This document shows, piece by piece, positions 24,001 to 38,286 of a stretch of 64,000 nt of DNA. A program made the translations under genes and the position numbers. The stretch covers positions 480,001-544,000 of the forward strand of contig OY970320.1 of the NCBI GenBank assembly GCA_963716745.1, read 5' to 3'. Below the pieces are notes generated by a model. The model saw only the letters and a list, made by a program, of their open reading frames with translations, ran no database searches and was not told where the DNA came from. Source of the stretch: an uncultured Gemmatimonadaceae bacterium. Its GTDB lineage: Bacteria; Gemmatimonadota; Gemmatimonadetes; Gemmatimonadales; Gemmatimonadaceae. Each line of letters starts with the position of its first letter. Position 1 is the stretch's first letter.

Positions 24001-24350
24001 TGGCAGGCGCCGGCCGTCGCGGCGGCGCGGCGGATACGACGAAGAAGGCCGGCGCGGATACGGCGAAGGCCGCGGGCGGCGCGGGTGCCGGCGGCGGTGC
24101 TGGTGCCGCGGAGCCGACCGTGAGCGAAGATGTGGCGCGTGAAGTGTTGACGGCGCTCCGCGCGGCGAAGGCGCTGCCCGGCGGCGGATTCGGCGGCCGG
24201 CGCGGCGGCGGACCCGTGGAAACGGGCGACTACATGGTCACGATGACATGGAAGGGCTCGGCGCAGCATCAGGTGCTGCGCGTGGAGAATCTCGTGGGCA
24301 GTGGAACGCAGATGGCGCCCGAGGATGACGAGGATCCGTTCGATCCGTAG
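21063..24350 (+). CDS. Secreted BNR/Asp-box (sortilin/VPS10-like) beta-propeller protein
   Basis: Signal peptide, WRNVGPADMGGRV, many [ST]xDxGxTW Asp-boxes. Confidence 0.9.
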   Translation: MIPHRPIALAILAAGLLVAPASVNAQQPSTTLDSATLSFFGWRNVGPADMGGRVADIAGIPSPSKTFYVAAAGGGIWKTTNAGTTFRPVFDSQRVVSMGALAIAPSDTNQVWAGTGEQNTRNSISPGGGIYKSTDGAKTWKLMGLEKTQQIGRIVVHPTNPDIVYVAALGHAWDANPERGLYKTTDGGKTWQLIKFVSDKAGFIDVAMDPSNPDILYATSYERVRGPWFLKSGGPGSALWKTTDAGKTWTKIEGGGFPATMLGRINVAVSRSNPNVVYALVEADSIRTANHALFSPASDSVTAKVKAPVKQRLLSGLYRSEDAGKTWRWMNDSDVRPFYYSQVRVDPKLSNRVYWSSTPVNFSDDGGKTVRTATNGIHVDHHAMWIDPNDGEHFVVGDDGGVSQTWDRGGNYDFLNKIVIGQFYEVSYDFAVPYRVCGGLQDNGSWCGPSRKVRSAITNFDWFTVGGGDGFYTAQDPSDPNIIYAESQGGNIRRLDYRTGESKPLVKPSWRPTYLLVEDSILTDRGDSTKPATSAQKKHLSDLRAMQVRDSMDLDMRFNWNTPYFISPHSPSTIYVGGNRVLRSSDRGENLVAISPDLSTRDAAKIRWSIDSTGGITNDATGAETYGTITTLAESYIQPGLLFAGTDDGNVWISHNDGAAWENLTGRFPGVPPKTYVVRIEPSHADSATFYVAFEGHRTNDFAPYLYMTTDFGKTFKSIVANLPTGGPDFLHVIREDPVNKDLLYVGTDVGAYVSRNRGQSWQKFMTSLPTVPVHDLKIHPRDHDLIAATHGRGIWIADVSVLQQLNDSNSTKDAYLFAPRTARAFGEAPGAEISEGQGTFQARNPPYGAEISYRLAGGTAKDTVKIVITNLKGDTITTLNGRGGVGMHRVTWDLNGKPPKAKPLTPAGRRDSLITAGKIDHVLDSLEKAGTATKAELAIIRDHIDKGTIFDLLGGAGGGGGGAGRNTERSGEGPLPRGVAGAGRRGGAADTTKKAGADTAKAAGGAGAGGGAGAAEPTVSEDVAREVLTALRAAKALPGGGFGGRRGGGPVETGDYMVTMTWKGSAQHQVLRVENLVGSGTQMAPEDDEDPFDP

Positions 24351-24372
24351 GCGATGCGTAGTGAGTGAATGA

Positions 24373-24403
24373 CAAAGGGCCTCCCGATTTCGGGAGGCCC
24401 TTT
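24373..24403. terminator. Bidirectional intrinsic terminator (original terminator of the tRNA operon)
   Basis: CAAAGGGCCTCCCGA-TT-TCGGGAGGCCCTTT hairpin between the BNR gene and the att copy. Confidence 0.8.
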
Positions 24404-24406
24404 GCG

Positions 24407-24461
24407 CAATGCCCAGGGCGGGACTCGAACCCGCACTCCGTTGCCGGAAGGGGATTTTAAG
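24407..24461 (-). repeat. att site copy (3' half of tRNA-Leu)
   Basis: Identical to 35276-35330; identity ends exactly after the anticodon loop CTTAAAA. Confidence 0.97.
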
Positions 24462-24545
24462 CGGCTGGCCCGGGGGGTCGGGAGAACATTACGGTTCCGT
24501 AGGAGCGCACAACAGGGCACCGGGGGGTACTCGCCGGAGGGTGTT

Positions 24546-24582
24546 GCGCCCATTCGAGCGCCCCATCGATTCGCACCCCTTC
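24546..24582 (+). repeat. Putative integrase arm-binding repeats (left arm)
   Basis: GCGCCCATTC, GCGCCCCATC and GCACCCCTTC; matches the repeats at 35218-35239. Confidence 0.7.
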
Positions 24583-24873
24583 CGCGCCGAGGTGCTGCGT
24601 GAGCACCCACGCGCGCTACCCGCACGGATTTCGTCTCGCCGCCGAGCTTCCCGCCGCCCCCGGCGCGCGGCGAGTCGAGGTCGCGTACTTCGACGCCACC
24701 GCGCGCGCGATCACCATTCGACGTCACCACAGGCCTCCCCACGACGCAGGACGCGCACGCGTTCGCGAAATGGGTCACGCGCTGTTCCGGCGTGCGCCGA
24801 CTCTCCGCACGGCGCGCTTGCACTTCTGCACGCGCTCTTGAAGTCCGAACCCACGCTCACCCCGAGGTAGATC

Positions 24874-25611
24874 ATGCGCATCCCGTTCATCTCCCCGCCC
24901 CGCGCGGCACCGACGACTCCACGTGGGCCGCCAGCGCGCCCGAGGACGATCAGGTCACGATACTCACCGCGCGGCTCGACGGCGCACGCGACGCACGCGA
25001 TACCGCCGCCGCGACGATCACCACGCTCCGCGCCGAGCGCGTGAAGCTCGCCTCGGTGGGCACCGACGCCGAGGCCGTCGTCGCGCTCGGCGACGCCATC
25101 AAGGCGCACGAGGATCAGCATGCGCTCGCCACCGAGGTGGCCGAGGCGCTGGAGGCCGAGTTGGCTCCGCTCCTCGCCGAGCAAGCCGCCGCACAGCGCA
25201 CGACCGCGCGCGCCGAGGCCGAGGAGCGCTATGCGAGTGGGCGCGCGGCGGCCATCGCATTCCGCGCCGCGCTCGATGACTTCCTCTCGGCGATGTGCGC
25301 CGAAATCGAGCGACATATCGCGGCGATCGATGCCGCCGACGCGTCGCTCGGTCACGCGGCGTTCGTGTTGAACGCGCACGGTGGCGCGGTGCCCGCCTCT
25401 CTCGGGGAGCTCGTCGCCATTCACGGCGGGCCTCGTCGGCGAACTGCGGCGGATCCCGGCGCGCTTCGCGGCCGAAAGGGCGCGCGTGGAGGGCACCGCG
25501 CGCGCGGAAGCGCACGCGGCGGCGTGGAAGGCCGAGCGCGAGGAGGAGCGGCGGCGCGTGATGGCCGAACGCCCAACGCCGCACGCCGGAGGCCCACCGC
25601 GCGCGGCATGA
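24874..25611 (+). CDS. Ala-rich coiled-coil hypothetical protein (apparent frameshifts)
   Basis: GAGG RBS before ATG 24874; helical segment in frame 24792..26141, C-terminus in frame 25381..25611. Confidence 0.5.
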
Positions 25612-25670
25612 CCCAGCACGGCTCCCGATGGTTCACGATCGATGCTTTCCCCTATGACAAGGAGCACCAC

Positions 25671-26141
25671 ATGAGCGGCAATTCAGCGGTGGCGTTCGCG
25701 AACAAGCTCGCGGGCGCGCAGATCAGCAAGGACACGCCCCTCACCACCCGCGCGCGCGATTTCACGTGGACGGTGCGGTTCTCGGACGGGAAGAAAACGG
25801 TCGTCGACTTGGCCTCGGCCCTCGCGATCGCGAAGGCAATCGACGCAGGCACGCGCACCGTGAAGGCGGCGGTGAGCGTGAGCGAGACGGTGGCGCTCGC
25901 GACGCGCCACGTGTGCTCGGTGGAAGTCGGCGTGGCCGAGCCGGGCGCGGTGAAGGAGACGCAGATCGGCTCCGTGAAGTTCAGCGACGGCACCGAGATG
26001 AACGTGACCTCGGAGTCGATCGCGGCCGTGATCAGCGCGATGACGGGCGGCGACGAGGGGGTGGAGATGGTCACGATCGGCTCGCGACAGATCGTCGCGA
26101 ACGTGGCGCAGATCGTGAGCGCGGCGCGGCCCGCGTCGTGA
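25671..26141 (+). CDS. Hypothetical protein with an internally duplicated V[RK]FSDG domain
   Basis: AAGGAG RBS; 156 aa; two similar ~55-aa halves. Confidence 0.75.
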   Translation: MSGNSAVAFANKLAGAQISKDTPLTTRARDFTWTVRFSDGKKTVVDLASALAIAKAIDAGTRTVKAAVSVSETVALATRHVCSVEVGVAEPGAVKETQIGSVKFSDGTEMNVTSESIAAVISAMTGGDEGVEMVTIGSRQIVANVAQIVSAARPAS

Positions 26142-26231
26142 TCGTGTACGACACGCGTCCCGGTTCGCCGCGTGGAGGGGCGGCCGGGCGCGTGGCAGTT
26201 CGCGCTTCTTCACTCTCACGCGAGGTGCACC

Positions 26232-26321
26232 ATGCCCGAGCAAGACGATAGCCCGAGCTTCAACTACGTGCCCGACGTGCCGCCGATCGTGGATCCGCCA
26301 CCGGACGATCCGCCGTCGTGA
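26232..26321 (+). CDS. 29-aa Pro/Asp-rich small protein
   Basis: GAGGTG RBS, MPEQDDSPSFNYVPDVPPIVDPPPDDPPS, GTGA overlap with the next gene. Confidence 0.5.
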   Translation: MPEQDDSPSFNYVPDVPPIVDPPPDDPPS

Positions 26322-26598
26322 TCGCTGAGCGCACGGTGGCGATGAGCCGGACGCGGTGCGAGTGGGCGATGCGGCACGAGGGACAACTAACCGCCCTCGC
26401 GCTCACCTTCGCGAGCACCATCGCCATCGTGCACGGCGACGTCGAGGTGAATGCGAAGCAAGCCACGGGCGTGCTTTCGCTCGCGCTCTACGTGGGCGAT
26501 CCGTGGGCCGCTCCTCGTGCGTGCGATCGGGCCGGGACGCCGACGCGGCGGTCGCCGCGACGGCCGCGCTGTTCGCGCATCCCGAGGCGCACGCGTGA
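26318..26598 (+). CDS. Hypothetical protein (apparent frameshift)
   Basis: GTGA overlaps at both ends; N-terminus from ORF 26318, C-terminus from ORF 26356..26598. Confidence 0.4.
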
Positions 26599-26991
26599 CG
26601 CCCTCGCGCTCTGTCTACGGCGCGTTCAGCGTCCCCGCCGAGGAGGGCGAGTACGCGCCGGAGCGCGTGACGTTCGCGCCGCCCTTCCCCGCATTGATCG
26701 GCTACAACGCGGCCGACTACACGGTGCGCACCGTGGGCGTCACCGTCATCGCGCCAGATGCGAGCGCGCCGCCCGTGCTCGATGTGTGGCTCCTCGACCC
26801 CGACGCGGATCCCGCCGAGGATGCGAGTTGGACGCTCTGGCCGGGCGCGATCGATCCGAGCGCGCGTCGGCGGCCGGGTGCTCCTCGGTACGCACGTCGG
26901 CGTCCAACTCCGCGCGCGGAGTTGTGGCACCCGCGCCCGGCTCGCGGTGCGCGCGCGATTCTTGGAGGACTTCCCGCCGTCGTGTAGCTGA
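26595..26991 (+). CDS. Beta-rich hypothetical protein (apparent frameshift)
   Basis: MTPSRSVYGAFSVPAEEGEY...VLDVWLLDP; likely continues in frame 26758..26991 (VGVQLRARS). Confidence 0.45.
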
Positions 26992-27002
26992 CGCTCCTCC
27001 GT

Positions 27003-27254
27003 TTACTTGTGGAAGATTGCAACCACCACGCCCGCCACCGTCGCGACGAAGATGGCGATGGTGGCCCACACGAGCCGCGCGTTGAGCTTTGCCGTCGTCT
27101 CGTCGTACGCGCGGATGCGCTCGGCGATGGCCTTCGTGCACTCCACGGGGACACGTAAGAAAGCTTGCATGACTTCCGCATCGCCCACACTCGGCATTGC
27201 CTTCACCTTCGCCAGCGCGTCGTCGATCGAGGCGAACAGCTTCGCGTTGTCCAT
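27003..27254 (-). CDS. Small protein with C-terminal TM helix
   Basis: Amphipathic helix then LVWATIAIFVATVAGVVVAIF. Confidence 0.7.
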   Translation of the reverse strand: MDNAKLFASIDDALAKVKAMPSVGDAEVMQAFLRVPVECTKAIAERIRAYDETTAKLNARLVWATIAIFVATVAGVVVAIFHK

Positions 27255-27290
27255 CGGGCCCTTTGTTGAAGGTGGAAGCCGAGCGCGCGC

Positions 27291-27512
27291 CTAGAAGTGC
27301 GACCCCGAGTACCACGCGCTCAGGACGAGCCACGCGATCACGCCGAGGAAAATCACCGCCACCGCGCACCCAACGAGATGCACCGGGTCGCTCAGGTTGA
27401 TGCCGGGCGGCTTCGCGGGCGTCGGCGGCTTCATCGGGTGGCCGCACTTGGGACAGCTCACCGCATCGCTGGAGATTTCGGTGCCGCACGACGGGCACGG
27501 GATGAGGGGCAT
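27291..27512 (-). CDS. Zinc-ribbon membrane protein
   Basis: MPLIPCPSCGTEISSDAVSCPKCG plus C-terminal TM. Confidence 0.85.
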   Translation of the reverse strand: MPLIPCPSCGTEISSDAVSCPKCGHPMKPPTPAKPPGINLSDPVHLVGCAVAVIFLGVIAWLVLSAWYSGSHF

Positions 27513-27534
27513 GGGTCGAGTGTGAGAGTGCGCG

Positions 27535-27825
27535 CTATCGGGGCGGCGCGACGGGCGGAGCGGCGGGCACACCGACGGGCTTGTCGGCGCTGTCGAGCAG
27601 TTGGCACTCGGGGCCACGCCCGTCGAGGGTCGTGACGAATCCGTCCGAGTAGATCCACGTGACCCGCTTCGGCTGGCGCTGTAGCCGCTCGGCCACGCCG
27701 GATTGCGGGAGCGCGAGCATGGCGGCGTCGCACGAGCCATAGGTGCGCCCATCCACCGCGACATGCGGCCCGCACGCACCAAGCGCGACGGTGACGATCG
27801 CTACGCCAACGATGGATCGATTCAC
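27535..27825 (-). CDS. Putative lipoprotein
   Basis: Signal peptide with LGAC lipobox; GGAG RBS upstream. Confidence 0.7.
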   Translation of the reverse strand: MNRSIVGVAIVTVALGACGPHVAVDGRTYGSCDAAMLALPQSGVAERLQRQPKRVTWIYSDGFVTTLDGRGPECQLLDSADKPVGVPAAPPVAPPR

Positions 27826-27895
27826 TCGGAGACTCCCTCGGCGCGGGTGCGGGAACGTGCGCCGCGCCGAAGCCGCTGTCTAGGGCGGTGCGCGA

Positions 27896-28543
27896 TCACG
27901 CGGGGAGTTCGCGCGGCTTGGGCGCGTGGATCTCCGCGAGGAGCGCCCCGAGTCGTTCCCCGTCCATCAACTCGATGCCGTGCTCATTTGCGAGCGCGAT
28001 CGCCGGGCCAGTGAACTCGACCGTCGTGACGTAAATCCCGCGCTCGGCGCGGTGATGCACCGCCAGCATGCCGATGAATTTCTGCATGTCGGGCGACCCG
28101 ACGCGAACGCCCCGGCCGAGCCGCTTGCACTGGACGACGACACTTCGGCCGCTCGGATCGATCGCCGAGAGATCGGCGGCGAGATCACCCGGCCGCCCGA
28201 CGTGTCGCACGTTCCGATACCCGAGGTCGGTGAGAAGGTCACCGATCGCGTGCTCAAACTCGGGCGGCGTAAGGCCGAACATGTCGTTCAGGTAACGCAG
28301 ATGCGAGCGTCGCCGTGCGCGCCACGCCTTCCGCGCGCGATACCCCGCGTAGGCGAGCGCGGCGAGGAGGATCCACGCGGCGACCTGTACGAGCGCCGGA
28401 TGGCCCGATCGGGCTTCGAGATTCTGGAACCACACGGCCGCGACAAGCACCGCCATCCACACCGCCGCGAGCGCGATGCCGAGCGTGATGATCCAACCGA
28501 AGATCGCGCTTTCGTGGCGCGTCAAGCGGCGGCGGCGACTCAT
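27896..28543 (-). CDS. Membrane-anchored Mrr-family restriction endonuclease
   Basis: Two N-terminal TM helices; LTPPEFE...LGY...ADL...VVVQCKR Mrr_cat motif, FT..AIALA, ELMDGERL. Confidence 0.88.
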   Translation of the reverse strand: MSRRRRLTRHESAIFGWIITLGIALAAVWMAVLVAAVWFQNLEARSGHPALVQVAAWILLAALAYAGYRARKAWRARRRSHLRYLNDMFGLTPPEFEHAIGDLLTDLGYRNVRHVGRPGDLAADLSAIDPSGRSVVVQCKRLGRGVRVGSPDMQKFIGMLAVHHRAERGIYVTTVEFTGPAIALANEHGIELMDGERLGALLAEIHAPKPRELPA

Positions 28544-29004
28544 GGCCGATGATGCTGCGCTCGGCACCGCGCGGCTAGAGGCGCGATAGACGCGATCGAC
28601 GGCGCGATCGCGGCCCGTCCTACGTCAACGTCGGGGCACGCGGCACAGGTTTACAGATGACACCTTACACGAGCGATGGTGTGATTCCACGACTTACACG
28701 CTCGATGTTCTCGGCTCGCGCTGGCGGCGTCCACTGTCGCTATGCGTCGCCCGCGACAGCCCTTGAAACGTCGCGGGATTCAGAAAGTGACCCCTCGCCG
28801 GAATCCGCTACTGCGACCCGGGCGCGATCATCGGCCCGCGCCGCGATTGCGAGCGTGCCCCGACGAGGCGATCTCTGCCCTCGTACGTCGCCGAGGCGGT
28901 ACTGATCCGCCCTCGGGGGCGAAGATGGCGGGACACACGGTGTCCGGCGCGGCACACGCGGGAAAGTCGCACCTAGTCGGAACCCGCCACGCCACGACGC
29001 TTGC

Positions 29005-29604
29005 TCAACCGAGGAACGAGACGCGCCCCGGCATGAAGACGTCGCCATTCTCATGAAACCTCCAGAGCGTGAACGCCGAGCCGCTCATGATATGCGCCTG
29101 AACGCCCATTACGATCCCGGCCAGCTCTTCTGCGCGCACCGTGAGCGCATTGAACTCGGCCGCCGTGTAGTCCAGAAGCGCCGGATTGTCGGGCGTGCCC
29201 GCGGCCCCGAACGCATGGCCGCTGACGCGTGAGAAGTCCGTGTCGCTCTCGGATCCCCACCCGACGTACCAGTGGCGGTGTAGCACGTTGTTCCGATCCT
29301 TAATCAGGCGATCGAGTCGGCCGAACACGTTCGCCATAATCTCGGCGTCGCGCTCCCCGGTGAATCCCGCCCGGCACTCCGCGACAACCTTGCAGAACTT
29401 CTTGAACACCGCCCCGGCCGTTTTCTTCGTGAGCGCGGCGCGGTCGATCGGCTGGAAGCGTCGGGAGTGCAATGTCGGAGCCGTGGTGATGGTCATCGCC
29501 ATCGTGGCCACCACGCGTTCGAACATGACCGCGAAGCGACCGATGGCTTCGTAGATCTCCCTTTCTTGCCGCACTCGGATTGCTTGCCGCTCAGTCTCGT
29601 CCAT
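29005..29604 (-). CDS. HEPN-domain protein (putative RNase)
   Basis: All-helical; N-terminal AIGRFAVMFE helix and RNNVLH (Rx4H) motif. Confidence 0.7.
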   Translation of the reverse strand: MDETERQAIRVRQEREIYEAIGRFAVMFERVVATMAMTITTAPTLHSRRFQPIDRAALTKKTAGAVFKKFCKVVAECRAGFTGERDAEIMANVFGRLDRLIKDRNNVLHRHWYVGWGSESDTDFSRVSGHAFGAAGTPDNPALLDYTAAEFNALTVRAEELAGIVMGVQAHIMSGSAFTLWRFHENGDVFMPGRVSFLG

Positions 29605-29615
29605 GACTCGGCGGC

Positions 29616-30260
29616 CTAGGCCTTGCGTTCTCCGCCCGCCGTGATCGCGCGCGCCACTTCGGAATCCGGCTCCGCTCGCGCGGGCGCAACCCCCTTGGGG
29701 GGCGAGAGTCGAGCGCGCGCTTTGACGCAGATCTCGTCCAGAAACCCCTTCGCCTCGGTGATCTCAGTTGCGAATCGCTTATGCTCGCCGGACGGCAGAT
29801 ATGAACGGTCGGCGGACGGGTCATGCGCATACGCCAGGCGCCTGCTCAGCCAAAGGAGGCGCTGAGTCGCAAATGCCGCGCGCATGGGGCCGCCCGGCAC
29901 GGCCGGCGCGAGGCGATTGAGCCGTTCGAGTTCCCACTCGAACCAACCCGAGGCTTCTCGAAGATTGGCGAGGGCGGTATGGCCCTCAATTTCCTCAAGT
30001 CTAACCATCAGAGTGACGCAGAGGGCTTCGAGCGCCTCCGCGTCGTTGCGTCGCGCCCCTTCAGCTTCCTCGCGTGCGACCCTCGCACTCTCCTCGGCGC
30101 TCTTGGCCAGATCGCGCGTGAGCCGTACGTACCACCATGTGAGCAGAACGAGAGCGACCGTCGCGGTGGCCGAAACCGCACCCGCGTTCGCGTTCAATCC
30201 GTTCACGAGCGCGGCGAGCACGCCGACGGCGAAGCGGTAGATCGTCTCGATGACGTTCAA
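29616..30260 (-). CDS. Hypothetical membrane-anchored protein
   Basis: TM helix AVSATATVALVLLTWWYV followed by coiled coil; TTG start overlaps the repressor stop. Confidence 0.7.
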   Translation of the reverse strand: MNVIETIYRFAVGVLAALVNGLNANAGAVSATATVALVLLTWWYVRLTRDLAKSAEESARVAREEAEGARRNDAEALEALCVTLMVRLEEIEGHTALANLREASGWFEWELERLNRLAPAVPGGPMRAAFATQRLLWLSRRLAYAHDPSADRSYLPSGEHKRFATEITEAKGFLDEICVKARARLSPPKGVAPARAEPDSEVARAITAGGERKA

Positions 30261-30922
30261 TGGCCCTTCCGCTTCGGCGGCTTCCCCTTCCCTCTCGGCT
30301 TCGCGGGCGGCCGCGTCGCCAGCGATGCCACGCGGGGGGGCTTTGTCGGCGTCCGGCTCGGCCTCGACGGGACGCCCGCGTGCGTGAGCATTGCCGCGAG
30401 TTGTCCCGGGTTCATGTCGCGCGCTTGTTTCACCCTCGCGAGCACGCGTGCGCGGCCGCCCGGCAACTTGAGCGCGTCGGCCAGCGCGGCGGCGAAGTCC
30501 ATCCGGTGCCTACTGCTCGTCACCGCCACCCGGTGCCGCACGCTGGCCGGAACATTCGGCGCGGCTAGCCCCACGGCGGCGCAGAATCGAGCGAACGCCT
30601 CGGGGAGCGTGAGCAACAGGAACTGATCGACGTCGTCGATCTTGCCGAGGGCCGCGACGCCCTCGGCCCACAGCGCGACGTCCGGCCCTCGGCCCTCGCC
30701 TCGGATGAGCCACGTGAGATCCACAGCGTACGCGCCGGCGATCTTGTCGAGCACGTCGGAGCGCGGCCGTGTTTCGCCGAACCCCGGCTCCTCCGGGCGC
30801 TTGACTAGCCGCGCCAACGTCGCCAGCGCGACGCCCGATCGCGCCGCCGCCGCGCGGATGCTCCCTCTGTCGTAGAGGTCAATCAGGGAACGCACGCGGG
30901 GGCCGAGGAGGTCGTCGCTCAT
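30257..30922 (-). CDS. XRE/CI-like HTH repressor
   Basis: SIRAAAARSGVALATLARL...PRSDVLDKIAGAYAVDLTWLIRGEG. Confidence 0.8.
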   Translation of the reverse strand: MSDDLLGPRVRSLIDLYDRGSIRAAAARSGVALATLARLVKRPEEPGFGETRPRSDVLDKIAGAYAVDLTWLIRGEGRGPDVALWAEGVAALGKIDDVDQFLLLTLPEAFARFCAAVGLAAPNVPASVRHRVAVTSSRHRMDFAAALADALKLPGGRARVLARVKQARDMNPGQLAAMLTHAGVPSRPSRTPTKPPRVASLATRPPAKPRGKGKPPKRKGH

Positions 30923-30929
30923 CTTAGAG

Positions 30930-30964
30930 TTGCATGTTTATGTGCGGAATGATACACTGTATCA
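30930..30964 (+). promoter_or_regulatory. Rightward promoter with overlapping palindromic operator
   Basis: TTGCAT-17bp-TACACT with TGn extension; TGATACA-C-TGTATCA palindrome at 30950-30964. Confidence 0.75.
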
Positions 30965-31042
30965 CGCGGCCGAATCCGTGCCGCGCTGACTCAAGATCGC
31001 GCTGGCGAGAGCGGCGCGCAACAGCGAACCGAGGGAGGCCCG

Positions 31043-31228
31043 ATGCCGAAGCTCCAACACCCCGAGTTGGTCGCCACCCGCTTCACCAAGACGCAACGCC
31101 GGGAGATCGACCTCGTGGCGACGCGCGAGCAGAAGAGCGTGGCGCGGCTCCTCCGCGAGATCGTCGTGCCCGCGATTGCCGAACGACTCACGCGCGCGAG
31201 CGGTGAGCGACAACGGGACGCCGCCTAA
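31043..31228 (+). CDS. Small ribbon-helix-helix-like DNA-binding protein
   Basis: GGAGG RBS; VATRFT-helix-KSVARLLRE pattern; divergent from the repressor. Confidence 0.7.
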   Translation: MPKLQHPELVATRFTKTQRREIDLVATREQKSVARLLREIVVPAIAERLTRASGERQRDAA

Positions 31229-31286
31229 CACAAAGCCCCGCCGTGCGGGCGGGGCCGAGTGCCATCATCGACAGGAGATCACGCTC

Positions 31287-31610
31287 ATGCCGACACCGAC
31301 GAACTTAAACGAATCCCCGGACGCGTCAAGGGCGGAACCGCCCTTGCTGTTGCGCAACGTTGCGCACGCCGACGTGCCGCGCGTCACCGCGTACTTCAAG
31401 CCGTTCCCCGGTCGCCCGCGTGGTGGATGGTTGATCGTCGAGTACTGTCCGTACTGCGGTGCGACCGGGAAGAAGGCGCACGTCCACGGCGCGAGTGATC
31501 CCGACGATCCCAATTTCCCCGGCGGTGGGTTGCGCATCGCGCACTGTCTCACCGGGCCGCCGCGCGACTACGACCTCGTCGTCGCGCCGATCGCGGAGGT
31601 GACGCCGTGA
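31287..31610 (+). CDS. Zn-binding phage-type protein (CxxC...HxH...HC)
   Basis: AGGAG RBS; CPYCG..AHVHG...RIAHC; GTGA overlap with the helicase. Confidence 0.7.
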   Translation: MPTPTNLNESPDASRAEPPLLLRNVAHADVPRVTAYFKPFPGRPRGGWLIVEYCPYCGATGKKAHVHGASDPDDPNFPGGGLRIAHCLTGPPRDYDLVVAPIAEVTP

Positions 31611-33136
31611 CGATGTTCCAGAACACCGACATCGGCAATGCCGAACGCCTTGATGCGCTTCATGGCATGAACCTCCGCTACGTGCCCGCGTGGAATCGAT
31701 GGCTCGTGTGGGACGGCAAGCGGTGGGCGGTGGATGATATGCGCCGCGTGCGCGAACTCGCGAGAGACACGATCCGGAACATCGTGAATGACGCGCTGGC
31801 GACGGCCGACCTCGACGAGCGGAACAAAGTGCTCACGTGGGCGAAGCGCTCCGAAAGCGACGCGGCGATCGCCGCGATGCTCCGCGCGGCCGATACGCTC
31901 CCGAGCTTCAAGATCGCGCCGGACGCGCTCGATGCGAAGCCGTACCTCGTCTCGTGCGCGAATGGCACGTTGGATCTCCGACTCGGGATCCTGCAACCGC
32001 ACCGGCGCGAGGACTACATCACCAAGCTCATCCCCATCGCGTACGACGCCAATGCGAAGTGCGAGCGGTGGCTCCGGTGGCTGTTGGAGACGTTCGGCGG
32101 TGATTGTGATCTCATCGACTACGTGCACAGGGCGGTGGGCTACAGTTTGACGGGCGACACGGGCGAGCAAGTGTTCTTCTTCGCCCACGGCCCCGCGATG
32201 GGCGGCAAGAGCACGTTCCTCTCCGTGCTGGCCGCGATCGCGGGCGAGAACGCGATCGCGGCCGCGTTCGATCTCTTGCTGGAACAGCGCGGCGGCGGCC
32301 CGCGCAACGACATCGCGCGGCTCGCCGGGATGCGCGTCGTCACGGCGGTGGAGGCGGGAGAGGGCCAGAAGTTCAACGAGCCGATCGTGAAGCAGTTGAC
32401 CGGGCGCGACACGATCTCGGCGCGCATGCTCTACCGCGAGGCGTTCGATTTCAAGCCCACCTTCAAGCTCTGGATCGGCGCGAACCACAAGCCCGTGATC
32501 AAGGACAGCGACAACGGCATCTGGCGGCGTGTGCAGATGATCCCGTTCGTCAACGTCGTGCCGCCCGAGCGGCGCATCAAGGACATCGAGGCCGTGTTGC
32601 TCCGCGACAAGGAGGGGATCTTCGCGTGGGCCGTCGCCGGAGTGGCCGCATGGCTCGCGGTCGGGGGCCTGAAAGCCCCGGAGGCCGTGACCCTCGCCAC
32701 CGAGGAGTACCGCACGGAATCAGACATCCTCGGCCAGTTCATCGATGAGATGTGCGAGCGGGGGCCGGGGTTCTCGGAGAGTGCGACGGTACTGCACGGG
32801 GCCTACCGGAAGTGGTGGGACGACAACGGCCATCGCGCCTTCATGAACCCCACCAAGTTCGGGCGATCGCTGGAGGAGCGGGGCTTCGCGCGCGTGGAGG
32901 GAAGTGGACATCACGAGCCCGTCCGGCGCGTTGGGCTTCGCCTCTTGCCGCCGGGAGGTGCCTCTACAGCGAATCGGGGGACAGTTGGGGACAGTACACC
33001 CCCGGTTGCGGGAACCCCCCATACGCGCGCGCGCGCGCACACGGGGCTTTACGCAAACGGCCCCCAACTGTCCCCAACTGTCCCCCGCGATGATGCAGAA
33101 CAGCTAGACATTGATCACGATCGGGGGGCCGCGTGA
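31607..33136 (+). CDS. P4/D5-family SF3 helicase (primase C-terminal type)
   Basis: D5_N TDIGNAERL..WLVWDGKRW, Walker A GPAMGGKST, VKQLTGRD, NHKP, GIWRR. Confidence 0.93.
   Translation: MTMFQNTDIGNAERLDALHGMNLRYVPAWNRWLVWDGKRWAVDDMRRVRELARDTIRNIVNDALATADLDERNKVLTWAKRSESDAAIAAMLRAADTLPSFKIAPDALDAKPYLVSCANGTLDLRLGILQPHRREDYITKLIPIAYDANAKCERWLRWLLETFGGDCDLIDYVHRAVGYSLTGDTGEQVFFFAHGPAMGGKSTFLSVLAAIAGENAIAAAFDLLLEQRGGGPRNDIARLAGMRVVTAVEAGEGQKFNEPIVKQLTGRDTISARMLYREAFDFKPTFKLWIGANHKPVIKDSDNGIWRRVQMIPFVNVVPPERRIKDIEAVLLRDKEGIFAWAVAGVAAWLAVGGLKAPEAVTLATEEYRTESDILGQFIDEMCERGPGFSESATVLHGAYRKWWDDNGHRAFMNPTKFGRSLEERGFARVEGSGHHEPVRRVGLRLLPPGGASTANRGTVGDSTPPVAGTPHTRARAHTGLYANGPQLSPTVPRDDAEQLDIDHDRGAA
32975..33087. 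repeat. Putative replication origin: perfect 21-bp inverted repeat of GGGGACAGTT iterons
   Basis: CGGGGGACAGTTGGGGACAGT (32975-32995) and its reverse complement (33067-33087) flank a (CG)n tract. Confidence 0.75.
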
Positions 33137-33834
33137 AGGGCCGCCGACCGCCCGAGGATGATCTGCCGTGGGGCTTCGATGACTGGAGCGCCGATCAGAA
33201 GCGCGCCTACCGGGAGGCGCGTGCTCGGGACAATGGCCAGTCCGGACGGCAAACCGCCGAGGAGCGCCGCCTCGCACGCGCCGCCAAGCGCCGCGCCGCG
33301 ATCGTCGCGACCGCGATCTTGGCGGGCGAGCACGGCGTGACGCAGAGCGATCTGCGGCGGCTCGGCCGTCGCAAGGGCTACGGCGGTCGGTGCATCTGGA
33401 CGGATCAACTCACGCAATCGCTCGTCGCCGAGGGCGTGCTCCTCGTACGGCCCGCGAGTTCGCGGCGGTTCTTCGCCGCGCCCGGCGCGACGGCGGAACG
33501 CGGAGCGATGAGCTCACCGGACACCGAGCGGCACGACGGCACACCGACGTCGCACGCGAACGACCCATCGCTCGGCCCGGTGCCCGCGTCGCTGTTCGCG
33601 CCCGTTGACGAGCACCGGCGTGACCGTGATGCAGATGAACATCACGACGCCGATGATGCTGAGCATCATGCCGCCGAACCGCCGCGCCGCGTGAAGCCAC
33701 GCGACACCGCACCGCTCACGGAGAAGTCCACGGCGGCCGACGTGTGGCGGATGCTTAACGCCATCACCGAGGCGAAGGTCGCCGCCGCCGCCGCGAAGCG
33801 CGCGGCCGATCGCGAAGGCGGTGCGCATGAGTAA
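33133..33834 (+). CDS. Hypothetical protein (possible winged-helix N-terminal half)
   Basis: Overlaps both neighbours; AILAGEHGVTQSDLRRL...LVAEGVL. Confidence 0.55.
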   Translation: MKGRRPPEDDLPWGFDDWSADQKRAYREARARDNGQSGRQTAEERRLARAAKRRAAIVATAILAGEHGVTQSDLRRLGRRKGYGGRCIWTDQLTQSLVAEGVLLVRPASSRRFFAAPGATAERGAMSSPDTERHDGTPTSHANDPSLGPVPASLFAPVDEHRRDRDADEHHDADDAEHHAAEPPRRVKPRDTAPLTEKSTAADVWRMLNAITEAKVAAAAAKRAADREGGAHE

Positions 33835-34105
33835 GCCCGCACCGATCGCCGCCGTCGTGGCCGACGTGCTTCGCCAGTTGCGCGCCGATCAGCCGGACGT
33901 CGCATACGGCCCGGTGCTCACGCCGCGCGAGGCGGCCGCGTACTTGCGGATGAGCGAGCGTGGCCTCCAAGATCGCGCCGACATTCCGCGCGTGGACATT
34001 GCGGCACCCGGCACCGAGCGCGCGATGTGGCGCTACCGCCGCGCGGATCTGGAAACCTTCATCGCCAAGCGGCTCCTCAACGCTTGGAAGGAGCCCGCCG
34101 CATGA
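33827..34105 (+). CDS. Excisionase-like HTH protein
   Basis: LTPREAAAYLRMS...WRYRRADLETF (HTH_17 pattern); ATGA overlap with the integrase. Confidence 0.85.
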   Translation: MSKPAPIAAVVADVLRQLRADQPDVAYGPVLTPREAAAYLRMSERGLQDRADIPRVDIAAPGTERAMWRYRRADLETFIAKRLLNAWKEPAA

Positions 34106-35211
34106 TCTCCAAGCATGGCGTCAACTTCCGCATCCGCGTCCCGCGCTCCGATCGCCGCATGGTGAAGATCAGCACGGGCACGGCGCATCGTGCCACCGCG
34201 TCGGCGATGAAGTCGATGGTCACGGCGCTCCGCGCGCGGCACGCGTGGCCGATCCTCGATGCGATCTGCGCGGGCGATCGCACGCTCGGCGAAGTGTACG
34301 ACAGCTACCGCACCGATCCGCGGCTCGCCGCGATGACGGCGGCGCTCGATGATCTGGACTTGGAGCCACTCGTCGCCGAGTGGAGCACCTACCTCGTCGC
34401 GCGCGGCACGCAGAGCGCGGCGCGCTACGTGAGGCAAGTGCGCGCGTTGGTCGAGAAGGATATCCCGTTCCCGCGTTCCAAGTTCACGCGCAAGACGATC
34501 TCCGAACATCTCGCCGAGCGCACCGTGTCGGGCTCCACCAAGAACCGCGATCGCGTGGCGCTCGCGCAGTTCGCGCGCTTCTTGGTCGAGCGCGACGTGC
34601 TCGCGCACAACGTCGTGAAGGACGTGCGCGCCGCCAAGCCAAACCCGGCGCGGATGATCTACTTGGAGCGCGCGCAAGCTCAGGCGCTCGTGAAGGCGCT
34701 CCCGCAACCGTTCCGCGCGCTGGAGGCGCTCATGCTCGCGACGGGCATCGAGTGGCAAGCGGCGGCGCGGCTCACGCGGCGCGACATTGATCTCGACGCG
34801 CGCACGGTGCACGCGCAGGGATCCAAGAACGCGTGGCGGAACCGCGAGGTGCGCATCGTCGCCGAGTGGGCGCTCCCGGCGATCACCGAGCACGTGCGCA
34901 CGCTCTCGCCGAGCGCGCCCGTGTTCTCGATCACACACAAGGCGGCGCTCAACGCGCACCACGACGCGATCAGCACGCTCAAGATGCCGCCGTCCACGCT
35001 TCACGATCATCGGCACACCTTCGCCGTCCAAGCACTCCGCGACGGCTTGTCGCCCACGACCGTCGCGCGGCAACTCGGGCACGCGAACGCGTACCTCGTG
35101 TTCACGACCTACGGGCGGTTCACCGTGGACGCGCGCGATTACGCCGCGCCGATCGCTCAGGCCGAGGAGGCCGAGCGGCCCGCGCTCATGCTGAAAACGG
35201 GGGAAAAATGA
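34102..35211 (+). CDS. Tyrosine recombinase/integrase (atypical, TGIE instead of TGxR)
   Basis: GSK, LHDHRHTFA, LGH and TYG motifs; adjacent to att/tRNA. Confidence 0.92.
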   Translation: MISKHGVNFRIRVPRSDRRMVKISTGTAHRATASAMKSMVTALRARHAWPILDAICAGDRTLGEVYDSYRTDPRLAAMTAALDDLDLEPLVAEWSTYLVARGTQSAARYVRQVRALVEKDIPFPRSKFTRKTISEHLAERTVSGSTKNRDRVALAQFARFLVERDVLAHNVVKDVRAAKPNPARMIYLERAQAQALVKALPQPFRALEALMLATGIEWQAAARLTRRDIDLDARTVHAQGSKNAWRNREVRIVAEWALPAITEHVRTLSPSAPVFSITHKAALNAHHDAISTLKMPPSTLHDHRHTFAVQALRDGLSPTTVARQLGHANAYLVFTTYGRFTVDARDYAAPIAQAEEAERPALMLKTGEK

Positions 35212-35217
35212 CAACGT

Positions 35218-35239
35218 GCGCCCCATCCAGCGCCCCATC
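35218..35239 (+). repeat. Putative integrase arm-binding repeats (right arm)
   Basis: GCGCCCCATC x2 with 12-bp period. Confidence 0.7.
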
Positions 35240-35278
35240 GCGTGCGAAGTTACGCGAGGTGAGCGGCGCTAACTTCAA

Positions 35279-35360
35279 TGCCCAGGGCGGGACTCGAACC
35301 CGCACTCCGTTGCCGGAAGGGGATTTTAAGTCCCCCGCGTCTACCTTTCGCCACCCGGGC
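35279..35360 (-). tRNA. tRNA-Leu(TAA), integration target; CCA not encoded
   Basis: GCCCGGG acceptor stem, GGGGA-CTTAAAA-TCCCC anticodon arm, long variable arm, GGTTCGAGTCC. Confidence 0.97.
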
Positions 35361-35425
35361 CTTTCGAAGAACAAGACGGGAGCGGCCGGATTCCGACCGC
35401 TCCCGCCATGCTTCAGACGCTCGAG

Positions 35426-35498
35426 AGCGGGAAACGGGACTCGAACCCGCGACCCCAACCTTGGCAAGGTTGTGCTCTACCAACTGAGCTATTCCCGC
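35426..35498 (-). tRNA. tRNA-Gly(GCC); CCA not encoded
   Basis: GCGGGAATAGCTCAGTTGGTAGAGC...AACCTTGCCAAGGTT...GGTTCGAGTCCCGTTTCCCGCT. Confidence 0.98.
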
Positions 35499-35506
35499 GT
35501 GAGAGC

Positions 35507-35535
35507 AAGTTAGTCCGCGGCGGAAATCACGACAA
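35507..35535 (-). promoter_or_regulatory. Promoter of the tRNA-Gly/Leu operon
   Basis: TTGTCG-17bp-TAACTT, 8 nt before tRNA-Gly. Confidence 0.65.
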
Positions 35536-35552
35536 GAGCCCAACAACGCACA

Positions 35553-35589
35553 CGGGGCGCGCCGCTCATTCTCGAACGGCGCGCCCCGC
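35553..35589 (-). terminator. Hairpin terminator after the SGNH gene
   Basis: GGGGCGCGCCG...CGGCGCGCCCC. Confidence 0.55.
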
Positions 35590-35612
35590 TTTCATTCACG
35601 CTGCGAAAGTGC

Positions 35613-36863
35613 CTATGGCGACGGCAGCAAGGGAACGCTCGTGCCGTACTTCGCGTTCACCGAATCGATCATCAACCCCGCGATCAACTGGTGCGCAAGC
35701 AGGCTCGGATGAATGCCGTCGAGCGTGAAGTAATTGCCGAACGTATTCGTGGGTGACAGGAGATTGGGGAACGCCGGAATGTCGCCCGACATCTTGAGTT
35801 CCAGCAGCGAGGGATTCACGTCCACATAGGCCCAGCCGAGCGAGTCGGCCTTCGCCTTGATGTACACGTTGTAGTTGTGCACGGCGAGCTGCACGGCCGG
35901 CACCTCGACGGAATCGAGCACGTAGATCTGCCCGAACAGGCCGTCGAGCGGGTACGGTCCCGCGGTGGGCGTCGCCTTGCACGTGATGTTCGGGCGGTGC
36001 GTACTGTCCCGGATCGCCCCCGCCAGCTGGAAATTGATGAGCGGCACCGGATTGGCGCACGAGGCATCCACGGTCGTGACCGCACCGGCCGCGGCGTCGA
36101 ACGCCGCCTTCACCTGCGGAACGAAGAGCAGATCCGCATGGAAGAGCAGCGGCGCGTTCGTCACGTCCACCACCGCGAAGAGCGCACCGCCCTTGAGCGA
36201 CGGGATCGCACGCAGCCCGTTCACGTCGGCGAGATAATTCTTCACGAACGTGGCCTGCGACGTGACGCCCGGCGACACACCGGGCACCGGCACCAGCACG
36301 CCGCTCAGCGCGGCGGGGAGTACGTCGTTGTTGCCGATCCACATCGAGACGAACGTCGGCTGCGCCTGCGCCGCGCGCGAGACCTGTGTGCCGCCGCCCA
36401 GAATGAACTGGGTGAGCGCGTTCGAGTTCGCGGTCGTGAGCGACACCGGATCGATGGACGCCGCGCCCGGCACGGCCACGTTGTTCACCACCGGCGTGAC
36501 CGACGTCGCGACTCGCAGGTAGCAACTCAAGGCCGTTGAGGGCGGGAAGCCCGGCGGCGTGACACGGTGCGACGGGAACGTGTCCACCGGCGGCGCGCAG
36601 CCAGGATACTGGATCGCCGGGATCGCGAACCGCGTGCCCGCCTGCTGCGCGAAGAGCACGGGGTACGATTCACTCTGCGTCACGCTGTTGATCCCGCCAC
36701 CCTGGTAGCCGGCGGTGATGCTGTTCCCGAGCGATACGTAGCTCTGGAAGAGCGGGTCCACTGCGACCTCTTTCGTGATCTGCTTCGAATCGGTACATCC
36801 GGTGATCACGGCCGCCACGATGAACGCGACCGCGCCACCCACGAGATATTGCTTGCGAGCCAT
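35613..36863 (-). CDS. SGNH/GDSL hydrolase lipoprotein
   Basis: Lipobox ITGC, GNSITAG, WIGNND, DGIHP. Confidence 0.88.
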   Translation of the reverse strand: MARKQYLVGGAVAFIVAAVITGCTDSKQITKEVAVDPLFQSYVSLGNSITAGYQGGGINSVTQSESYPVLFAQQAGTRFAIPAIQYPGCAPPVDTFPSHRVTPPGFPPSTALSCYLRVATSVTPVVNNVAVPGAASIDPVSLTTANSNALTQFILGGGTQVSRAAQAQPTFVSMWIGNNDVLPAALSGVLVPVPGVSPGVTSQATFVKNYLADVNGLRAIPSLKGGALFAVVDVTNAPLLFHADLLFVPQVKAAFDAAAGAVTTVDASCANPVPLINFQLAGAIRDSTHRPNITCKATPTAGPYPLDGLFGQIYVLDSVEVPAVQLAVHNYNVYIKAKADSLGWAYVDVNPSLLELKMSGDIPAFPNLLSPTNTFGNYFTLDGIHPSLLAHQLIAGLMIDSVNAKYGTSVPLLPSP

Positions 36864-36893
36864 CGGCGATTCTCCCGTATTCAAAGGTGGCGG

Positions 36894-38286
36894 TTAGAAA
36901 TTGGCCTTGAGACTGACCGACAGGATGTTGGCGGACAGCTGGTACCATCCGGTGTTCAGGTCGGCCGCGGTCTGCGATTCACTCGTTCGATTCACGATGC
37001 GGCCGCGCCGTCCCTGCGTGTTCACGTATTCGTACGCGGCGTCGAGGGTCCACGTCGCGCCCAGCGGCGCGCCGATCCCCAGCATGATGTTCTCGCGATT
37101 CTGGTCGGGGAGCAGCGGCGTCACGGTGACATCCGGCACCGGCGTGCTCACGTAGCTCAGCCCGACGCGTCCCTTGAGCCCCGATGCGAACGCGTGCTCC
37201 GCGCCTGCGCGAATGGTCCACGAATTGTTGTAGTCCTGGATCAGGTTCTGGCTGTCCGGGGCCGCGGGGCCGGTGAACTGCAGGTCGATGTTCTTGAACG
37301 CCGAGAAGCCGGTCACCTGGTAGTCGAGCTCGAGCAGCCAGTTCGTGAAGCCCGTGTACGCGATGCCCAGTTCACCCTGCCACGGGTGATCGAGCTGCGT
37401 CGTCGCGCCCTGCGAGACGAGCGGACCGCCCACGAGGAACTGCGGCGTGAGCAGCGCGTCGAGCGGCGTGCCGGCTGGAACGCCGGGGAAATGCCGGCCG
37501 CGGGCACGACGAGGCCCGTCGTCACCTGCGTGAAGTTCGCCTTCCCGTTGTCATACTTGAAATTCAGCTGCGAGAGATAGCGCGCACCCACCTGCCAATC
37601 GGACCCGACCTTCCCGTGCACGCCCAGCGAGAATCCAGCTCTGCGTCGACGATCCGGTCACGGTCGCGAGGCCGAACTGCGTGAACTGCGGAATGCCCAG
37701 CATGCCGAACGTGACGCCCGGCTGCGCGAGCTGCGACGAGAGATCGAGCGCTTCCTTGAGCTGCACGGTGGAGTAGCCGAACACGAATCCGGCGCCCACC
37801 GACCAATCCTTGGTGATCTGGTACGCGAAGTTCGGCTGCACGTAGATCGTCGCGAGCGCCGCCTTCTGGCCGATGAAATTCCCCTGGAAGCCGTTCGGCC
37901 ACTGCGACGTGAGCCCGAACGGCGCGTAGACGCCGAGTCCTGCCGCCCATTTGTGCGACGGCGTGGTGTAATTGACGAAGATGTTCGGCGGGAAGGCCGG
38001 CGGCACGGCGCCCGGCGTCGAGGTACCCGTGGTGTCGGAGGTGAAGCCGCCGCGCACGTTGATCCACGCGGCGCCGAAGTACGAGCGACCAGCCGGAGAG
38101 TTGGGTCGTGGCGGCCGGGTTCCAGTAGATCGCCGACGGATCATTGCACGGCGCGGCGGTCACCGCCTGTCCGCGCGCGAGGGCGCACGACCCGATCTCG
38201 TTCAGCTGGAATCCTTGCGCTTGGACGACCGCGGGCATCACACCGGCCAGCAGCGCGACGCACCAAGCAGCACGGGCGAGTTTCAT
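36894..38286 (-). CDS. FadL/OmpP1-family outer membrane fatty-acid transporter (several frameshifts)
   Basis: GFQLNE, PSAIYWNPA, GLGVYAPFGL, PLLPDQNR and terminal F across frames. Confidence 0.85.

Follow-up and report, generated by a model that had tools for sequence, protein, structure and literature searches.

The 64,000-nucleotide stretch of DNA analysed here (the window; contig OY970320.1, positions 480,001 to 544,000, of the uncultured Gemmatimonadaceae assembly GCA_963716745.1) carries, between positions 24407 and 35330, a discrete, recent insertion in the 3' half of a tRNA-Leu(TAA) gene, the tRNA itself being left intact. The inserted DNA is probably a recent site-specific integrative island of 10,869 bp, self-replicating and helper-dependent, i.e. 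a 'hitcher' resembling a phage satellite. Its ends are defined by an exact 55-nt direct repeat (24407-24461 and 35276-35330), detected with a repeat finder, whose two copies start 10,869 bp apart. The left copy (attL) duplicates the 3' part of the tRNA, while the right copy (attR) lies within the intact gene, which ARAGORN and Rfam place at 35279-35360 on the minus strand, with a tRNA-Gly(gcc) at 35425-35498 on the same strand; Rfam finds no RNA families beyond these two. The right copy corresponds to tRNA positions 31-82 plus three nucleotides beyond the 3' end, its start being at the edge of the anticodon loop, the anticodon itself occupying 35326-35328, in agreement with the preliminary description of this DNA, which had recognised exact repeats of this length and spacing as the 3' part of the tRNA.

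The insertion is seen directly in comparison with five other genomes of the same genus. In a DNA search the sister species G002 matches the left flank (93% identity) up to window position 24461 and the right flank from position 35276, the two matches sharing an overlap of exactly 55 bp, and when the junction is read there is one exact 55-mer core between the attL-side and attR-side flanks. This is an empty site, the kind of attB for which the preliminary description had proposed a search of related genomes, and as the G002 flanks abut around a single exact 55-mer the repeat pair cannot be a product of chance. The exact repeats and the single core of the empty site together establish a discrete and recent insertion of 10,869 bp. 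At the matching position G004 has 233 bp of unrelated sequence and no repeat. The same tRNA-Leu(taa) locus in G005 (L027:670-1586) holds an 868-bp insert enclosed by 49-bp copies of the 3' part of this tRNA; its content is unrelated to that of the window element, and this indicates that the same attB was used by another element, since reduced to a stub. The helicase gene described below occurs in none of the five genomes, and none of the element's proteins is found at the tRNA-Leu loci of G001, G003, G004 and G005, the contig of G001 ending beside the tRNA. The host genome (G000) is a single 3.29-Mb contig of 67% G+C, 89.8% complete by score, and the element is not distinguishable from its flanks by G+C content.

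Short repeats accompany both cores. On the plus strand GCGCCCATTC and GCGCCCCATC lie at 24546-24567, 84 bp inside attL (repeat family D7, which matches 35217-35240 at 88%), and two exact copies of GCGCCCCATC lie at 35218-35239, 36-58 bp before attR. The 64-kb window has four exact copies of GCGCCCCATC, of which three are less than 100 bp from the att cores and share a single orientation, making these repeats plausible candidates for the arm-type sites of the integrase.

The rightward array and its helicase

Six-frame open reading frames (ORFs) abound in GC-rich DNA, 160 of at least 40 residues overlapping positions 22000-38000, and they were therefore scored by sliding codon log-likelihood under a codon model for which 463 long ORFs of the genome served as the training set. 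Family scans covered 34 ORFs with PHROGs and 38 with Pfam (35 ORFs of the element and three flanking genes), NCBIfam being used as well, and the matches obtained in the element are limited to helicase, integrase, excisionase (xis), Mrr, Zn-ribbon and helix-turn-helix (HTH) proteins. Neither the 34 ORFs compared with PHROGs nor the 35 element ORFs compared with Pfam gave any match to capsid, portal, terminase, tail, lysis, relaxase or FtsK proteins, in keeping with the preliminary description, which had recognised no capsid, portal, terminase or conjugation gene; the same two databases detect no prophage structural, packaging or lysis genes, or pseudogene remnants of them, in the element.

The rightward array runs from a ribbon-helix-helix (RHH)-like gene through genes for a Cys/His (Zn) protein, a helicase, a 233-residue ORFan and an HTH_17 protein to that of the integrase. 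Overlapping start and stop codons join the last five of these (31607/31610, 33133/33136, 33821/33834 and 34102/34105), and together with the Pfam, PHROGs and NCBIfam matches they substantiate, from the Zn protein onwards, the coupled operon of RHH, Zn protein, D5 helicase, hypothetical protein, xis and int proposed earlier. The helicase (31607-33136, plus strand, 509 residues) is a P4-family D5_N/superfamily 3 (SF3) enzyme matching Pfam D5_N (1.9e-35), DUF5906 and Pox_D5, and it scores 273 bits against the C-terminal domain model of the P4-family phage/plasmid primases, TIGR01613, the cut-off of which is 108.7. It aligns to the PHROG primase-helicases of about 770-855 residues only from about position 330 onwards, which indicates that it has no primase domain.

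This helicase is present in 7 of 41 related genomes and 16 of the 301 genomes of the order (G000 is included in both counts). The best identity reaches 50% among the 301 genomes, 42% in genome contigs (four loci) and 43-44% in metagenome contigs (21 loci); the named match at 42% is a Planctomycetota metagenome-assembled genome, and viral contigs gave no relative. Eighteen loci with related helicases were compared and the helicase alone is conserved across them. When all the element's proteins were run by tblastn against the relatives' loci, the only matches beyond the helicase were weak ones to the integrase at three metagenome loci and a single one to Mrr, and no close relative of the whole element was found. 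In seven of the 18 loci (L021, L023, L024, L025, L026, L074 and L076) the helicase is followed downstream by a co-oriented integrase, with a tRNA gene alongside in six of the seven, and in L025 a pair of 52-bp tRNA-Ser repeats, spaced by 7,248 bp, marks the ends. Small terminase (TerS) genes stand between helicase and xis in L023 (Terminase_4, phrog_83) and L024 (phrog_4044). The closest homologue of all, at 50% identity in G173, adjoins genes for TerS (phrog_51), the large terminase (phrog_2), portal (phrog_145) and head-morphogenesis (phrog_3517) proteins, that is to say a phage block. This block was read at L072, one of two helicase copies in G173; L072 and its counterpart L073 (G173:C2 ~49473-50810 and 102532-103869), about 53 kb apart, have identical scores against the window helicase and could represent two related prophages or a large duplication.

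The position of xis and int as the last genes of the replication operon had been taken as the possible mark of a new family. This view is not supported, given the helicase-then-integrase order in seven of the 18 relatives' loci and two precedents described in the available part of PMC2440964, namely pSAM2, a 10.9-kb actinomycete element with a rep-xis-int operon next to its tRNA att site, and PhiRv2, in which a rep gene lies directly upstream of xis-int. The unusual architecture is real, and it is neither unique nor unprecedented.

Of the smaller genes in the array, xis (33821-34105, plus strand) encodes an excisionase/AlpA-like HTH_17 protein (Pfam 2.1e-7). The Cys/His protein (31287-31610, plus strand), of the pattern CPYC...HVH...HC, was read from its ORF and ribosome-binding site and is translationally coupled to the helicase; its start is most likely at 31287, giving 107 residues and correcting the preliminary description, and its sole Pfam hint is far below the cut-off. 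Small ORFs lie upstream of the helicase genes in the relatives, and by comparison they are not homologous to it. The 233-residue ORFan (33133-33834, plus strand) fills the slot between helicase and xis that holds a small terminase in some relatives, and possibly has a winged-helix fold. A word-based search of a large protein collection returned only the ORFan itself, HMMER returned itself and one low-complexity match, there is no sequence match in the Protein Data Bank (PDB), and the single-sequence structural model is poor, with a predicted local distance difference test (pLDDT) score of 51.7. Two identities for it were rejected: MarR, for which the Atlas score of 0.82 is below the trust level, and TerS, as it has no similarity to the Terminase_4 of a relative by BLASTP or to Terminase_2 by profile comparison. 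That the slot is occupied by a very divergent TerS is possible.

The integrase and its clade

The tyrosine integrase (34102-35211, plus strand, 369 residues, with an alternative start at 34027) matches Pfam Phage_integrase (3.8e-8) and phrog_1 (3.4e-33) and has homologues in 35 of the 301 genomes of the order, G000 included. A tRNA lies directly beside the integrase in 11 of 12 clade loci (tRNA-Met in six, tRNA-Leu(taa) in four and tRNA-Leu(caa) in one), and a xis homologue of 45-58% identity lies directly upstream in four of the 12. Six elements of the clade are bounded by tRNA repeats of 42-55 bp and are 5.5-10.2 kb long each. L117 (7,811 bp) sits, like the window element, in tRNA-Leu(taa), has a 55-bp repeat and encodes a Rep_1 rolling-circle replicase and XamI-type restriction; L119 (10,194 bp) combines Rep_1 with MmeI-type restriction-modification; L120 (G120, tRNA-Met; L120:1553-11711; 10,114 bp) has a subtilase and an OLD-family ATPase-TOPRIM nuclease beside a UvrD helicase, a pair that may be Gabija-like; and L122 (5,502 bp) and L124 (7,402 bp) carry a MacB-type permease and a DsbA-like protein, respectively. 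The sixth, L118 (G301, tRNA-Met; L118:2892-11040; 8,107 bp), contains a TerS (Terminase_2) and a scaffold-like gene (phrog_673), with int last and no other PHROG match to head, packaging or tail proteins, and is a better satellite candidate than the window element.

Phage and phage-like DNA also uses this integrase clade. At tRNA-Leu(taa) in G052 a RecE/RecT-type phage-like insert (L121) has RecE/YqaJ-type recombination genes before xis-int, an order resembling that of the 41.7-kb uncultured podophage MW202627.1, the integrase of which (L126:13882-14994) is 40% identical to the window integrase. The int-xis module is accordingly common to phages, plasmid-like islands, cargo islands and one terminase-bearing mini-element. 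The D5 helicase is found in none of the other integrase-clade loci, indicating that the window element is a mosaic of this int-xis module and a phage-type helicase module.

The most interesting loose end is the active site of this clade. Alignment with the P2 integrase (PDB 5c6k) sets Glu217 (GAG, 34750-34752; TGIE in the window protein) opposite the TGAR arginine, i.e. the first arginine of the catalytic pentad (Arg-I). The other active-site residues, Lys, Arg-II, His-III and the Tyr nucleophile, are kept, and only the Arg-I of TGxR is not. None of 29 clade homologues (L085-L113) has arginine here, 19 having Glu, eight Asp and two Thr, and the podophage integrase has Asp, whereas all six integrases of the helicase clade have Arg. 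In the 28 clade sequences aligned, Lys242, Arg246 and Arg248 are invariant, the two arginines lying just after the catalytic lysine, and Arg304, His327 and Tyr337 are found in 27, 26 and 25, respectively (the other three are gaps in the case of Tyr337). From this conservation the acidic residue at Arg-I reads as a clade trait, not a private lesion.

According to the available text of PMC2943603, 91% of tyrosine recombinases have arginine at the Arg-I position, alternative active sites have been proposed, and in Cre most Arg-I substitutions abolish activity. In IntDOT a downstream arginine substitutes for Arg-I, and in IntDes Arg-I is shifted (PMC8138268, as far as available). The window clade resembles IntCTnDOT and IntDes in that the first arginine of the RKHRH pentad is absent from its usual place, and like IntDOT it has arginines downstream (here two, both invariant, after the catalytic lysine). 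It differs in having Glu or Asp at the position in 27 of the 29 homologues, a case that does not appear in the portions of PMC8138268 and PMC2943603 available. Given the clean recent insertion, the acidic Arg-I is probably compatible with integrase activity.

The other recombinases of the host genome are two Xer-like proteins and one fragmented integrase. Outside the window, at G000:C1:2775921-2776472, three adjacent integrase-family fragments lie in different frames, probably the broken integrase of another, older element.

Regulation, cargo and the left end

Transcribed away from the rightward array is the gene of a 221-residue CI-like HTH repressor without an S24 peptidase domain (30257-30922, minus strand), which matches the transcriptional repressor family phrog_3037 (4.8e-5) and, below the cut-off, Pfam HTH_3 (0.002). 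It is divergent from the first rightward gene (31043-31228, plus strand), which has coding signal and an upstream GAGGGAGG ribosome-binding site and specifies a 61-residue RHH-like (Cro/Arc-like) protein without family match, its RHH fold being read from the sequence pattern. The divergent repressor/RHH switch described previously is in this way retained as a gene pair, the repressor match being weak and the second protein assigned by pattern only. The 120 bp between the two genes (30923-31042) read TTGCAT, 17 nt, TACACT, with a perfect 6-1-6 palindrome of 13 bp, GATACAcTGTATC, at 30951-30963 overlapping the -10-like TACACT; a consensus promoter scan reported nothing in this region, which on its sequence would contain both promoter and operator. 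A GC-rich hairpin of nine pairs between the RHH and Zn genes (31234-31256), picked up by a scan for terminator-like structures and having a T-run on the minus strand only, is possibly an attenuator of read-through into the replication and excision genes.

Four genes on the minus strand form the first cargo cassette. They encode an 83-residue protein with strong coding score (27003-27254; 0.46 per codon) whose hydrophobic tail, read from the translation, gives a C-terminal membrane helix; a 73-residue zinc-ribbon protein, also with a C-terminal membrane helix (27291-27512, the start being set by coding score; the longer ORF 27291-27782 matches Pfam Zn_Ribbon_1 at 9.2e-8 and Zn_ribbon_3 at 1.5e-7); a 96-residue protein with a signal- or lipoprotein-like N-terminus, identified by coding score and without family match (27535-27825); and a Mrr-type (type IV restriction-like) endonuclease with two N-terminal membrane helices (27896-28567; Pfam Mrr_cat 6.1e-25, PADLOC mREase_IV 5.4e-17, phrog_17577 restriction endonuclease 1.7e-5). 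Upstream is a 437-bp non-coding spacer (28568-29004) in which no frame has coding signal and CTTACACGnnCGATG occurs twice, 29 bp apart; it probably holds the promoter of the cassette and might include an origin.

Two leftward cassettes had been described, and the first is as reported; the second (29005-30260) turns out to lie in the repressor's own operon, the start at 30260 of its upstream gene overlapping the repressor stop at 30257 by 4 nt. That gene (29616-30260, minus strand) encodes a 214-residue protein with an N-terminal membrane helix, weak coding score and no family match. The other (29005-29604, minus strand) encodes a 199-residue helical-bundle protein with a conserved R-N-x3-H-R motif and one homologue at 38% identity, for which the structural model is better (pLDDT 72.7, predicted template modelling score 0.72) and the Atlas score to unnamed bacterial clusters is 0.95. 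Foldseek gave it no match at E<=0.001, and HEPN chains superpose on the model with Z of 5.6-6.7, within the noise of unrelated helical bundles, so that a HEPN-like fold is possible as a lead only. The membrane-bound Mrr-type nuclease cassette and the other unnamed genes probably act against phages.

On the plus strand at the left end an ORFan of 449 residues (from 24792) or 366 residues (from 25041) extends to 26141, with a helical N-terminal part, an Arg/Gly-rich linker and a repeated C-terminal domain. Its coding signal is present at 24900-25350 and 25600-26050 with a dip between; it has no family match and finds only itself among 5.8 billion proteins, and PDB matches at E 0.05-0.08 were ignored. 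The neighbouring stretch 26318-26987, also plus strand, is doubtful as coding DNA, having no family match and a coding signal that passes into another frame near 26450-26550, a pattern suggestive of one gene with a frameshift or of two short ones. Plus-strand coding signal across 24792-26987 bears out part of the 'orphan operon' recorded there in the preliminary description, the coding status being partly doubtful as the signal changes frame twice (25376-25550 and 26450-26550). These changes suggest frameshift mutations or assembly indels, and a completeness of only 89.8% in a closed genome is compatible with indel errors. Outside the element, to the left of attL, a gene for a 1,095-residue BNR/Sortilin-repeat protein (21063-24350) has many paralogues in G000 and relatives at 64-70% DNA identity.

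Affinities, origin and mode of transfer

The size of the element (10,869 bp), its tRNA-Leu(TAA) target and its P4-type helicase, above the cut-off for TIGR01613, are typical of satellites, as the preliminary description had remarked. For a comparison with the known families the SatelliteFinder definitions, as set out in the available part of PMC10085698, were applied by hand to the Pfam, PHROGs and NCBIfam matches. Phage-inducible chromosomal islands (PICIs) have five core components, of which three can be counted here: integrase, a candidate HTH_17 regulator/xis and replicase. For the regulation module (an alpA, merR or stl homologue) the candidates are the HTH_17 protein (2.1e-7) and the weak HTH_3 repressor, and the primase-replicase module is present though helicase-only; the small terminase and the capsid-morphogenesis gene are both missing. 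The same source excludes as non-specific the combination of int, AlpA and primase alone, 'Type C' (PMC10085698). The element is at this level, and it is unassignable to P4-like elements, PICIs or capsid-forming PICIs (cfPICIs) as SatelliteFinder defines them, with three of five PICI components and no P4 or cfPICI hijack genes (PMC10085698, in the part available). It nevertheless resembles PICIs in its size of about 10 kb (PICI median 9.5 kb), its integrase, small HTH regulator and replicase-type gene of its own, and also in its accessory defence-type cargo and lack of tail or lysis genes (PMC10085698). It differs from them in having neither a small terminase nor a capsid-morphogenesis gene and no known helper. 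In PICIs the integrase is found at the start, whereas in the window element it closes the replication array and adjoins att.

With P4-like elements the window element shares, through the C-terminal domain of TIGR01613, a replicase of the P4 phage/plasmid primase family, as well as a length of about 10-11 kb, insertion at tRNA-Leu and defence-type cargo. It lacks, in the Pfam, PHROGs and NCBIfam scans, homologues of psu, delta, sid and epsilon; its replicase is without the primase half and its regulation is CI-like with RHH. P4-like elements are reported mainly from Enterobacterales (PMC8628076, as far as available). Unlike cfPICIs it has no capsid, portal, head-tail connector/adaptor or large terminase of its own. 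The likeness to pSAM2 lies in the replication gene followed by xis and int as a unit beside the tRNA att site (31607-35211, then attR) and in a repressor that maintains the integrated state (PMC2440964). The FtsK/TraSA translocase, Nudix protein Pif, GntR regulator KorSA and activator Pra of pSAM2 are absent from the window element, which has an SF3 helicase in place of the rolling-circle RepSA and a host that is not actinomycete-like. Marine VEIMEs (integrative mobile elements encapsidated in virions) and tycheposons, recovered from virions and vesicles, are by analogy closest in spirit, being small and integrase-bearing, with primase/helicases, AlpA/excisionase-type genes and many ORFans; many are without capsid-remodelling genes and packaged as concatemers (PMC9618062, in the part available). 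VEIMEs are, however, defined by their recovery from virions (PMC9618062), and no sequence relationship to them emerged, the helicase scan of viral contigs having found no relative.

The element can probably, on its gene content, excise and replicate itself. Of the routes for transfer between cells that of a phage is most likely, because both modules have phage and terminase-bearing relatives and the cargo looks defensive. The link is indirect: L023 and L024 on the helicase side and L118 on the integrase side carry TerS, the 50% helicase lies in a phage block, and a podophage has an integrase with 40% identity to that of the element. Several points weigh against the hitcher reading. The repressor assignment is weak, with HTH_3 at 0.002 below the cut-off, and the RHH fold and the operator were identified by eye. 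No hijack or packaging gene is recognised in the element, the ORFan in the terminase slot has neither similarity to terminases nor relatives in the searches, no helper is known, and the host genome has no match to TerL_ATPase, Terminase_6N, Phage_capsid or Phage_portal (only these four families, in a genome 89.8% complete). The frame changes in the two left-end ORFs may be decay, and with Glu at Arg-I the Cre substitution data mean that present-day mobility is not assured.

In the mechanism we propose, the repressor would, in the integrated state, be made together with two cargo genes and shut the rightward promoter at the 120-bp control region. Once it is inactivated a single transcript would give the RHH protein, Zn protein, helicase, ORFan, Xis and Int by translational coupling. 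As the repressor has no self-cleavage domain, it is likely to be relieved by an anti-repressor, possibly from an infecting phage. Xis and Int would then recombine the two 55-bp cores, probably helped by the GCGCCCCATC arm repeats, and the helicase would replicate the circle, the priming being supplied by host or helper. For transfer, outside machinery would be needed, most probably the capsids of some phage, and in the new cell Int would insert the circle into tRNA-Leu(TAA), the host gaining the membrane-bound Mrr-type nuclease cassette and the unnamed genes.

A more specific proposal is possible, if on balance doubtful: the element would be a genuine phage satellite belonging to a family not yet described, one or more of the ORFans (33133-33834, 24792-26141, 31287-31610) would divert the packaging or the capsid assembly of a helper phage, and a protein of the helper would relieve the repressor, as happens with SaPI Stl. 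In its favour are the size of the element, the tRNA target, the int/xis pair, the P4-family helicase, the absence of structural genes and a repressor without S24 domain; in relatives of both modules a TerS occupies the corresponding position, and defence cargo is typical of satellites (PMC9122126, in the part available). Yet no hijack gene is recognisable and the ORFan is unlike TerS, no helper or cos/pac site is identified, and the host genome gives no match to the four phage packaging and capsid families. The integrase clade, moreover, also includes plasmid-like elements with Rep_1 and simple cargo islands, and a satellite does not follow from the sharing of these modules. The phage-block helicase and the podophage integrase do indicate that the element's modules are phage-derived, and an immobile prophage remnant, which has lost its late genes and is kept for a useful Mrr cassette, could be argued from the same relationships, from the presence of the integrase clade in a full phage and in the phage-like insert at the same tRNA in G052, from the Glu at Arg-I and from the changes of coding frame at 25376-25550 and near 26450. 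We consider such a remnant improbable. The exact 55-bp repeats and the empty site in a sister species 93% identical leave little time for decay, the Pfam and PHROGs scans reveal no pseudogene remains of structural genes, and the core array is intact and tightly coupled, all of which is unlike a decayed prophage. The acidic Arg-I, shared by 27 of 29 homologues and a complete phage, is a clade trait, and the six repeat-bounded relatives are equally small, the recurrence of this size class (5.5-11 kb) pointing away from a decayed prophage.

The rep-xis-int order, the size of about 11 kb and the tRNA target match pSAM2 at 10.9 kb (PMC2440964) and would suit an integrative mobilizable element moved by conjugation, or one like the actinomycete integrative and conjugative elements. 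This explanation is very improbable, as no ORF encodes an FtsK/TraSA-like translocase, relaxase, Nudix or GntR regulator according to Pfam and NCBIfam, the replicase is an SF3 helicase and not a rolling-circle Rep, and the neighbouring gene for a FadL-type outer-membrane protein (Pfam) points to a diderm host, not an actinomycete. Conjugative mobilisation finds no support. In its fullest form the argument from phages would make the element a working member of an undescribed capsid-less satellite lineage in a little-studied high-GC diderm order, in which a helper protein removes a Stl-like repressor, packaging proceeds via an ORFan unrelated to known terminases, and the integrase clade catalyses with an acidic Arg-I and a relocated arginine, R246 or R248; we think this combination unlikely.

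As a probable helper-dependent hitcher the element is no surprise in kind. The catalogue of small helper-dependent islands gains through it a lineage in which none had been described, and the family models for P4, PICI and cfPICI elements miss such elements. The comparative set that surrounds it, with phages, a terminase-bearing mini-element, rolling-circle plasmid-like islands and defence islands on one integrase clade, is a system in which the shuffling of integration, replication, packaging and defence modules can be followed. Alternative active sites among the tyrosine recombinases can be tested on the clade with Glu or Asp at Arg-I, with which at least one clean recent insertion is associated.

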